Source: Escherichia coli
Lineage (GTDB): Bacteria; Pseudomonadota; Gammaproteobacteria; Enterobacterales; Enterobacteriaceae
NCBI RefSeq assembly: GCF_044324875.1
Contig: NZ_CP172185.1
Length of the DNA: 64,000 nucleotides
Strand: one strand, 5' to 3'
The position numbers and the translations under genes were made by a program. Shown one piece after another: positions 27,754 through 29,902 of this stretch (position 1 is its first letter; each line of letters begins with the position of its first letter). The notes below the pieces were generated by a model. That model did not search any database. It worked only from the letters and a program-made list of their open reading frames with translations, and was not told the origin of the DNA.

Positions 27754-28354
27754 GAATAACGGAAGCCGCGTGTATGGCTCATGCCCGGAGAAAAATCCAC
27801 GATGTGCATGCAAGAGCGCCCACCGACATCACCACGGAAGCCCTGCAGCGTATCGGTGAACTGTATGCCATCGAGGCAGAGGTCCGGGGCTGTTCAGCAG
27901 AACAGCGTCTGGCGGCAAGAAAAACCAGAGCCGCGCCACTGATGCAGTCACTGTATGACTGGATACAGCAACAGATGAAAACACTGTCGCGTCACTCAGA
28001 TACGGCAAAAGCGTTCGCATACCTGCTGAAACAGTGGGATGCACTGAACGTGTACTGCAGTAATGGCTGGGTGGAAATCGACAACAACATCGCAGAGAAC
28101 GCCTTACGGGGAGTGGCCGTAGGCCGGAAAAACTGGATGTTCGCGGGTTCCGACAGCGGTGGTGAACATGCGGCGGTGTTGTACTCGCTGATCGGCACAT
28201 GCCGTCTGAACAATGTGGAGCCAGAAAAGTGGCTGCGCTACGTCATTGAACATATCCAGGACTGGCCGGCAAACCGGGTACGCGATCTGTTGCCCTGGAA
28301 AGTTGATCTGAGCTCTCAGTAAATATCAATACGGTTCTGACGAGCCGCTTACGG
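27754..28354 (+). mobile_element. IS66-family element 3' fragment (tnpC C-terminal 182 codons plus terminal repeat)
   Basis: ORF 27774..28322 resembles the TnpC C-terminus of the 7518..9131 gene (..[10 protein letters not shown].., ..LIGTCRLN..); CGCTTAC end motif at 28348-28354. Confidence 0.65.
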
Positions 28355-29340
28355 CCGTTATCAACGGCGCCCGGAAAAGTCAGGCTTGTAGGTGTATCGG
28401 TATTTCTATTCGGACACTTCAGCGCTGGACTAATGGCAACGTCATCACCACGGACCGAAGATCCGATACTGTAAACAGATCTCCCCGAAATAAGCTGTCA
28501 GAAGCGGAAAGATTGCGGATACTGGAGTTGTGCAACTCTCCAGAGTTTGCATCCTTACCTCCAAATGTGATCGTACCAACTCTGGCAGACAGGGGTATTT
28601 ATATTGCTTCTGAATCAAGCTTTTATCGTGTACTGAAATCAGCCAACCAGTTGAAGAAACGCTCCCGTGAATGTCAGTATAAACGGCCTGATGTACTCAG
28701 GGCCGTTGCACCGAATCAAGTCTGGAGTTGGGACATCAGCTATTTGCCGTCCTGGGTCAGAGGTCAGCATTTTTACCTCTATATGATCGTCGATATTTAC
28801 AGTCGCAAGATTATTGCTGCAGAGGTATTTGCCAGCGAATCTGGAAAACATGCAGCAGAACTACTCCAGCGGGCAGTATGGAATGAAAAATGTTCATCCA
28901 ACAATCTGGTACTCCATTCTGATAATGGTGGTCCCATGCGCAGTTACACGTTGTTGGCGAAAATGTATGCGCTTGGTGTGCTAAGTTCTTATTCCCGGCC
29001 AAGAGTCAGCAATGATAATCCTTACTCAGAATCTTTGTTCCGGACTCTCAAATATTGTCCCTGGTGGCCTGAGAACGGTTTTCGCACTATTAATGATGCC
29101 AGAGTATGGGTAAACCGTTTTGTAAACTGGTACAACTTTGAACATAAGCACAGCGGGATCAAATACGTCACGCCAGCCGAGCGTCATCAAGGTAATGATA
29201 TGAAAATACTGGCGGCCAGAAAAGCAGTATACCAGCTAGCACGCGAACAGCATCCTGAACGTTGGGGAAAGCATCTACGTAACTGGGACTACATATCAGA
29301 AGTTTACCTGAATCCAGAAAAAGAGGCTGCATAACGTAAT
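28355..29340 (+). mobile_element. IS3-family element fragment (orfA 3' part and orfB), 5'-truncated
   Basis: ORF 28513..29334 has the IS3-family integrase core (HSDNGGPM, SNDNPYSESLFRTLK); upstream frame encodes a helix-turn-helix remnant without a start. Confidence 0.6.
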
Positions 29341-29365
29341 TTTATTACAAAAGGCGACAACTACC

Positions 29366-29902
29366 TTGAAAAACGCCGCCAAACTGCGATCGATTCAGAT
29401 GCCATTTTGCACCATCAACACAGTATATCCGAAGGCCCGCATCCAGTTATGCGTCGTGCATATGGTGCGCAACAGCCTGCGCTTCGTGTCATGGAAGGAC
29501 TACAAGGCCGTCACTCGCGACCTGAAAGCGATTTATCAGGCTCCCACGGAAGAGGCAGGTCAGCAGGCACTGGAAGCGTTCGCTGCGGCCTGGGACAGTC
29601 GCTATCCTCAGATAAGCCGAAGCTGGCAGGCTAACTGGCCGAATCTTGCCACGTTCTTCGCTTATCCAACGGACATCCGCAAAGTGATCTATACGACGAA
29701 TGCCATCGAGTCGCTAAACAGCGTGATCCGCCATGCGATCAAAAAGCGTAAAGTGTTCCCGACAGACGACTCGGTGAAAAAAGTGGTGTGGCTGGCAATC
29801 CAGTCTGCGTCCCAGAAATGGACGATGCCGTTGAAGGACTGGCGAATGGCAATGAGCCGCTTTATTATCGAGTTCGGTGACCGCCTGGACGGTCACTTCT
29901 GA
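29366..29902 (+). pseudogene. IS256-family transposase C-terminal fragment
   Basis: 178-aa ORF with the mutator-type C-terminal signature (YTTNAIESLNSVIR); no N-terminal catalytic part upstream. Confidence 0.6.

Follow-up and report, generated by a model that had tools for sequence, protein, structure and literature searches.

Truncated insertion sequences beside the raf module of an Escherichia coli genomic island as the probable remains of nested insertions and one IS629-anchored deletion

Introduction

How did truncated pieces of several insertion sequence (IS) families come to abut one another at a single junction of an Escherichia coli genomic island? We addressed this question in a 64,000-nt stretch of E. 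coli DNA from contig NZ_CP172185.1 (assembly GCF_044324875.1; hereafter the window), in which positions 27754-29936, read on the + strand, are 2.2 kb of uninterrupted IS debris. An earlier note, made from the sequence alone, had described a pile-up of three different truncated elements here and read it as repeated insertion and deletion at a recombination hotspot on the island boundary. The elements are ISCro1, an IS3-family element that we call element X, and IS1414. We argue that the pile-up is probably the right-hand stub of nested insertions, trimmed by one deletion. The pile-up itself is an ordinary cluster of IS remnants and a product of ordinary genome wear. The behaviour of element X, a by-product of the analysis, is more interesting than the pile-up and most worth following up.

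To assign families, translated remnants were compared with NCBIfam profiles at their curated cut-offs. The DNA was then mapped to full-length references taken from other genomes: a complete ISCro1 named as such by the Prokaryotic Genome Annotation Pipeline (PGAP) (2,699 bp; locus L002), the complete X unit of strain STEC384 (1,696 bp; L017) and a complete IS1414 (1,314 bp; L018). Comparisons across strains used 5,426 complete E. coli genomes, and plasmids were compared in a set of 72,556 records.

Results

Three truncated elements abut without intervening DNA

From left to right, the pile-up begins with the 3' end of ISCro1 (IS66 family; nt ~2100-2699 of 2699) at 27754-28352 on the + strand, which retains the C-terminal 189 codons of tnpC and the right inverted repeat. 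ISCro1 nt 2099-2699 maps to 27752-28352 with 99.3% identity over 601 bp, and the translation of 27753-28322 matches the IS66 profile NF033517 (E=4e-60; 203.8 bits, cut-off 180) at profile positions 221-386 of 387 only. The right inverted repeat, ...CGCTTAC, is intact up to its end at 28352 and has the GTAA.../...TTAC type of terminal repeat. The tnpA and tnpB genes, the left repeat and the 8-bp target duplication of a complete element are missing, so this is a fragment only; the duplication, TTATCCAA, was observed solely at the complete ISCro1 in L002. On its left, the piece is met inside tnpC by IS629 nt 1-795 (26959-27753, - strand; 99.5% identity to complete IS629), whose left terminus, ...GGTTCA, is complete to its last base at 27753.

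The next piece, at 28353-29378 (+), comprises nt 605-1630 of the 1,630-bp core of element X, or nt 638-1663 of the X unit. It carries orfB with its DDE domain and has the right end ...TTGAAAAACGCCG. Nt 638-1696 of the unit map to 28353-29411 with 100% identity. The translation of 28351-29334 matches the IS3 profile NF033516 (E=4e-54; 184.1 bits, cut-off 160) at profile positions 103-368 of 369, and its score against the IS481 profile, 105.9, falls under the cut-off of 224. In the window, orfA and the frameshift site are deleted; for the complete copies in L017 and L006, PGAP records a 'programmed frameshift'. The last piece is IS1414 (IS256 family; nt ~790-1314 of 1314) at 29412-29936 (+), with 98.3% identity to the complete copy and an intact right terminus. 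Its translation at 29414-29902 matches the IS256 profile NF033543 (E=2e-46; 158.3 bits, cut-off 150) at profile positions 202-336 of 338; IS1414 nt 1-789 are absent, and the piece does not have both ends of a complete element.

Mapping left 0 bp of other DNA between the ISCro1, X-unit and IS1414 pieces, and in each of them the right end is intact and the left part is gone. Three different truncated elements therefore do abut in the order first described, each above its NCBIfam cut-off and each represented by a C-terminal part only. The right limit first given, 29902, is the stop of the open reading frame; the IS1414 remnant itself reaches its terminus at 29936. The pieces do not belong to one composite known element, since complete copies of all three stand on their own elsewhere (L002 for ISCro1, L017 for the X unit and L018 for IS1414).

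RefSeq annotation already displays the pile-up as three partial transposase genes. In the near-identical region of BEN5202, PGAP has three consecutive + strand transposase pseudogenes, each 'missing N-terminus': an IS66-family tnpC (27753-28322), an IS3-family transposase (28351-29334) and an IS256-like IS1414 transposase (29414-29902). BEN5202 is in register with the window only at 20833-43820, and its annotation was applied only there. The region of the pile-up is 99.9-100% identical to about 12 complete genomes, including BEN5202, AR_0085, LR-31 and GF4; over its full length the window is collinear with none of the genomes in the collection, the best, GF4, reaching 92% coverage. The remnants are pseudogenes and have no evident function.

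The piece assigned to the IS3 family is indeed a 5'-truncated IS3-family element, but its last 33-34 bp are ISSso4 (IS21 family). Positions 29379-29411 (+) are a 33-bp segment of the ISSso4 left inverted repeat that forms an outer shell of the X unit, with its terminus, ...GCCATTTTGCA, at 29411. This terminal segment of the unit is identical at 34/34 positions to ISSso4 termini in many records. Since an ISSso4 terminus lies inside the IS3 piece, four IS families are represented in the pile-up. The complete ISSso4 reference in L014 has istA, istB and an 8-bp target duplication; at 29379-29411 istA and istB are not present, and only the outermost 33 bp of ISSso4 are. We considered and dropped the idea that these 33 bp are what remains of an ISSso4 hit in place by X: the complete unit of STEC384 is bounded left and right by ISSso4 left-repeat termini, and collapse of one ISSso4 in place cannot yield such a unit.

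The X-unit terminus meets IS1414 at CCATCAACACAG; strains without X read through this point with continuous GGATGCCATCAACACAG. The unit thereby sits at codon 2/3 of astA, the EAST1 gene, and parts it from its ATG. What is left of astA (29412-29525, +) encodes, in the alternative frame, EAST1 residues 2-38 and the stop codon (PSTQYIRRPASSYASCIWCATACASCHGRTTRPSLAT*), with Met1 lost. A widely used astA forward primer for the polymerase chain reaction (PCR) presumably starts at CCATCAACACAG, exactly where the remnant begins; if so, such strains could type astA-positive by PCR without an intact gene. The astA gene is embedded in the IS1414 transposase gene, and decayed IS1414 copies with astA fragments are found in many E. 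coli strains (PMC12585946). The window's astA is likewise fragmentary, although short of its ATG only. It differs from those copies in that the truncation arose when the X unit inserted at codon 2/3, a truncation of which the text of PMC12585946 gives no description.

The junction takes at least six arrangements across strains

The hotspot proposed in the earlier note is borne out by the 5,426 complete genomes, in which the junction has at least six arrangements. In state A (201 of the genomes, and the conjugative IncK2/Z plasmid pLH50-c-A), the IS629 terminus lies on IS1414 nt ~489, and IS1414 continues otherwise uninterrupted to nt 1314, followed by rafY. Br_190 has state B, which is state A with a complete ISCro1 at another IS1414 site. 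In state E (STEC384 and STEC379), a complete X unit occupies the window's exact IS1414 site, without ISCro1. The arrangement of the window, state C, is found in 11 genomes, and MS 119-7 has a further IS629 inside X (state C'). Finally, in state D (23CRST013) the same IS629 terminus abuts X unit nt 679: the ISCro1 tail and 41 bp more are lost, and the remainder is 100% identical to the window. One IS629 end is therefore joined to at least three partners, namely IS1414 nt 489, ISCro1 nt ~2100 and X nt 679, and these form a nested set of deletions. An independent parallel to the IS629-anchored truncation of X exists at a second locus, where the X unit is complete in EJN001 and is met at X nt 1016 by an IS629 terminus in NCTC11121.

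A probable nested history with one deletion

We consider it likely that the pile-up is the right-hand stub of nested insertions trimmed by a single deletion. The starting point would have been state A as found in other strains, with IS1414 beside rafY and cut at nt ~489 by the IS629 left terminus. The 1,696-bp unit, consisting of X between two 33-bp ISSso4-type termini, would have inserted into this IS1414 remnant at astA codon 2/3, the site it occupies complete in the two state E strains. Because the intact right end of ISCro1 meets an internal site of X, a second insertion would have placed ISCro1 in X at unit nt 637/638; past the ISCro1 end at 28352, X continues exactly as in the reference. 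A single deletion of ~3.0 kb, from exactly the IS629 left terminus to a point inside ISCro1 tnpC, would then have taken IS1414 nt ~489-789, X unit nt 1-637 and ISCro1 nt 1-~2098.

Insertion alone accounts for two of the three internal junctions, in which an intact element end faces an internal site of its host; a deletion or rearrangement has to be invoked only for IS629|ISCro1. One deletion anchored at the IS629 terminus accounts for all three truncations. The reading first proposed, repeated insertion and deletion, overstated the number of deletions. The deletion could have been mediated by transposase acting next to IS629, or a new IS629 could have entered tnpC and recombined with the resident IS629; the sequence cannot tell these routes apart. 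IS3 has been reported to make adjacent deletions of varied length (PMC8860574). The IS629 deletions resemble these in that one endpoint coincides exactly with the IS terminus and the other, distal one differs by strain. They differ in that the case in the window is read from sequence, with either transposase action or IS629-IS629 recombination as the route. On this account, an IS 'graveyard' becomes legible as an ordered history of two nested insertions and one IS629-anchored deletion, and the same IS629 end has eaten into its neighbour to a strain-dependent depth.

Several points weigh against this history. It predicts two left junctions, IS1414|X-unit and X|ISCro1-left-end, with the sequences ...CCCGGATG followed by 5-8 bp starting CCATCAAC and then TGCAAAATGGCATC, and ...TCCACGAGGCCGTTA followed by GTAACCGGCTCATTT; neither was found in the 5,426 complete genomes. 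With every left copy lost, no target-site duplication can be verified. The X unit of STEC384 borders at its left end on a piece of a group II intron and not on IS1414, so that this strain is itself rearranged. Lastly, the missing left halves were sought within the window only, and an inversion or translocation is formally possible.

The earlier note's own view, piecemeal decay by three independent insertion-plus-deletion episodes, one for each element, gains something from a junction that is plainly unstable across strains and from state A, in which IS1414 has already been truncated once by IS629. It would nevertheless require three deletions that each stopped exactly at the intact right terminus of a neighbour, boundaries that insertion junctions give without any deletion, and the state E strains, whose X unit is complete at that IS1414 site, identify one of them as an insertion junction. 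We therefore regard piecemeal decay as unlikely.

We give about the same small chance to the mosaic having been built on another replicon, such as a raf plasmid, and imported as a block by homologous recombination through its IS629 and raf flanks. The presence of IS629|IS1414|rafY on the conjugative IncK2/Z plasmid, the joint carriage of raf genes and X by K88 plasmids and the strain-dependent cargo to the left of IS629 would all fit such an import. However, no plasmid among the 72,556 records covers at least 80% of the X-IS1414-rafY segment, and the X|IS1414 junction is chromosomal in 14 of 14 records; moreover, import would alter where the events took place and not what they were. An assembly artefact or chance matches of open reading frames can be dismissed almost entirely. 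IS-rich regions are generally prone to misassembly, but the same junctions recur in 11-14 independent complete genomes from varied hosts and countries, replication that already refutes this explanation, and the family E-values range from 1e-46 to 1e-60. Nested insertion followed by one IS629-anchored deletion remains the history that we favour.

Element X is found inside IS21-family termini

No name for element X was found; the sources go no further than 'putative transposase' or 'hypothetical protein'. In a protein-guided scan that took one genome per species, hundreds of relatives, 50-64% identical, came from Vibrio, Pseudomonas, Marinobacter, Cupriavidus and other genera. Stand-alone, repeat-collapsed contigs of the X family, 1,662-1,685 bp long, start with CCCCC(G/T)GTGTCAGG and end with TTGAAAAACGCCG, and at least 12 relatives in other genera have 4-bp target duplications exactly at these ends, within the short (3-5 bp) range tested for. 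As these ends are the boundaries of the 1,630-bp E. coli core, the 33-bp outer segments are not part of X. IS3-family termini typically read 5'-TG...CA-3'. Stand-alone and duplication-flanked copies of X depart from this and end CCCCC.../...CGCCG; where E. coli copies of X end in TG...CA, these termini are those of the IS21-type shell.

The shells vary between copies. E. coli X cores are flanked by the left or right terminus of ISSso4, the left or right terminus of ISEc12, and at least two further IS21-family types. The cut falls 31-33 bp from the IS21-family terminus or one 23-bp repeat further in (54-56 bp). The left flank could be read in 54 X copies, 47 on metagenome contigs and 7 at genome loci, and at least 51 of them keep to this rule. 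The loci behind this observation are L006, L008, L012, L013, L017, L018, L020, L101, L102 and L103-L149. Most copies have IS21-family termini on both sides, pointing outward. In L102, the core lies in the left repeat of an otherwise intact ISEc12 that bears its own duplication, GGAATG, and in L018 ISEc12 interior adjoins one side of X. Beyond the shell, three X units are bordered by duplications of 5-6 bp (GTTGAT, CCAGG and CCACAG), which resemble those of ISEc12 itself (ACCAG, GGAATG) and not the 4 bp of the X family. No X flanked by ISSso4 interior was found when searched for, although the search did bring up L102. A search for istAB adjoining the shells of Vibrio copies also found none, and so the IS21-type label there is one of resemblance only.

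The possibility that the 33-bp termini are X's own inverted repeats was ruled out. Stand-alone contigs and duplication-flanked copies end at the core; cores that are ~96% or more identical bear at least six unrelated shells; the shells are identical to the ends of present-day ISSso4 and ISEc12; and the core in L102 is inside an otherwise intact ISEc12. An ATAA/ATAA pair in L102, at one time taken for a clean 4-bp duplication of X, was withdrawn: the natural ISEc12 left repeat consists of three repeats ending AATAAC, and L102 is short one 23-bp repeat.

On balance, we lean towards a reading in which X specialises in IS21-family elements (ISSso4, ISEc12 and others) and enters their terminal repeats at a depth of 31-33 bp, or one 23-bp repeat deeper. 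If X copies in both ends of a single IS21 element recombined, the product would be a mini-IS21::X chimera, with X between two IS21 termini and no istAB, and it would be moved in trans by IS21-type transposition. The chimera, and not X alone, would then have landed in IS1414, and 29379-29411 would be its trace. Further X-X recombination would shuffle the shells. That IstAB mobilises the chimeras we infer only from the length of the duplications. We found no paper on targeting or chimera formation by X, and the literature on ISSso4 or ISEc12 gave nothing on targeting.

The closest analogue is the pair IS4321/IS5075, described as targeting a fixed position in the terminal repeats of Tn21-family transposons (PMC8269217, citing Partridge and Hall 2003). 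Like them, X occurs at a fixed position in the terminal repeats of another family. Set against what that account gives of IS4321/IS5075, X differs in being an IS3-family DDE element, in targeting the IS21 family, in mostly having termini on both sides and in apparently moving as a chimera, the case for X being built from sequence comparison. X units also share features with non-autonomous derivatives of the miniature inverted-repeat transposable element (MITE) kind that are mobilised in trans: two IS21-type termini, no istAB and 5-6-bp duplications like those of ISEc12. Their interior, however, is a complete IS of another family and not deleted filler. If the reading is true, X would be a second clear case of an IS living as a parasite on the ends of a different transposon family, and it would travel as a chimera.

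Some further observations concern these shells and their parent elements. Metagenome contigs L136, L145 and L146 share with L148 the same locus, an ISEc12-type shell and the CCAGG duplication, with the X core in opposite orientation. The window also contains a complete ISSso4 at 48629-51267, 19 kb away from the pile-up's own ISSso4-type terminus, with 99.7% identity to the reference copy and an apparent 5-bp duplication, GCAAA. On plasmid pNMBU-W12E19_01 (L007, 2963-3063), the left end of a genuine ISSso4 borders on IS1414, at another position and inversely oriented, a second and independent landing of an ISSso4-type terminus in IS1414.

Genomic setting of the junction

To the right of the pile-up, a spacer at 29937-30138 separates the IS1414 right end from the 3' end of the porin gene rafY (30139-31635, - strand), and it is kept together with IS1414 beside rafY in chromosomes and plasmids. 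The remnants lie downstream of the convergently oriented rafY. Within the island, the site has a type I restriction-modification module on one side and the raf module on the other; the island integrase is ~20 kb further right in the related BEN5202, and no tRNA gene was found in the window. What had been called an island boundary is instead an internal junction between modules that varies by strain.

The cargo to the left of IS629 changes with the strain: type I restriction-modification in the window (~11600-24000), Hhe in SCEC020023 (L003) and MADS in Br_190 (L002). The IS629 junction thus acts like a point at which defence systems are swapped. On the other side, raf genes and the X unit occur together on K88 plasmids (pUMNK88_K88, L020), and pLH50-c-A (L150) has IS629|truncated IS1414|rafY, which suggests that the raf module has been exchanged between plasmids and chromosomal islands.

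The left neighbour, at first taken for a fifth copy of IS629 (24202-27753), is a chimera. IS629 does adjoin the pile-up, but only as nt 1-795, a part that includes an ALIL frameshift pseudoknot (27302-27418, 111.7 bits). It is joined to a group II intron (24690-26958, - strand), recognised by Rfam RF00029 at 24690-24776 (64.9 bits) and by its annotated ltrA (24779-26287). The 3' exon of the intron (24202-24689, -) is a 3' fragment of a second IS3-family element other than IS629, annotated by PGAP as 'IS3 family transposase, missing N-terminus'. No match of IS629 to 24202-24689 was found by blastn, and the open reading frame at 24232-24627 bears the C-terminal motifs of a DDE domain. In MS 119-7 (L004), unlike the window, a complete IS629 abuts the last 45 nt of the intron. 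Four more complete IS629 copies lie within 27 kb, in keeping with an active IS629 in this genome. An inverted pair of IS629 copies (17605-18914 and 19527-20836) flanks a 612-bp piece of hsdS, the type I restriction specificity gene. This piece is inverted relative to BEN5202, and hsdS is thereby disrupted.

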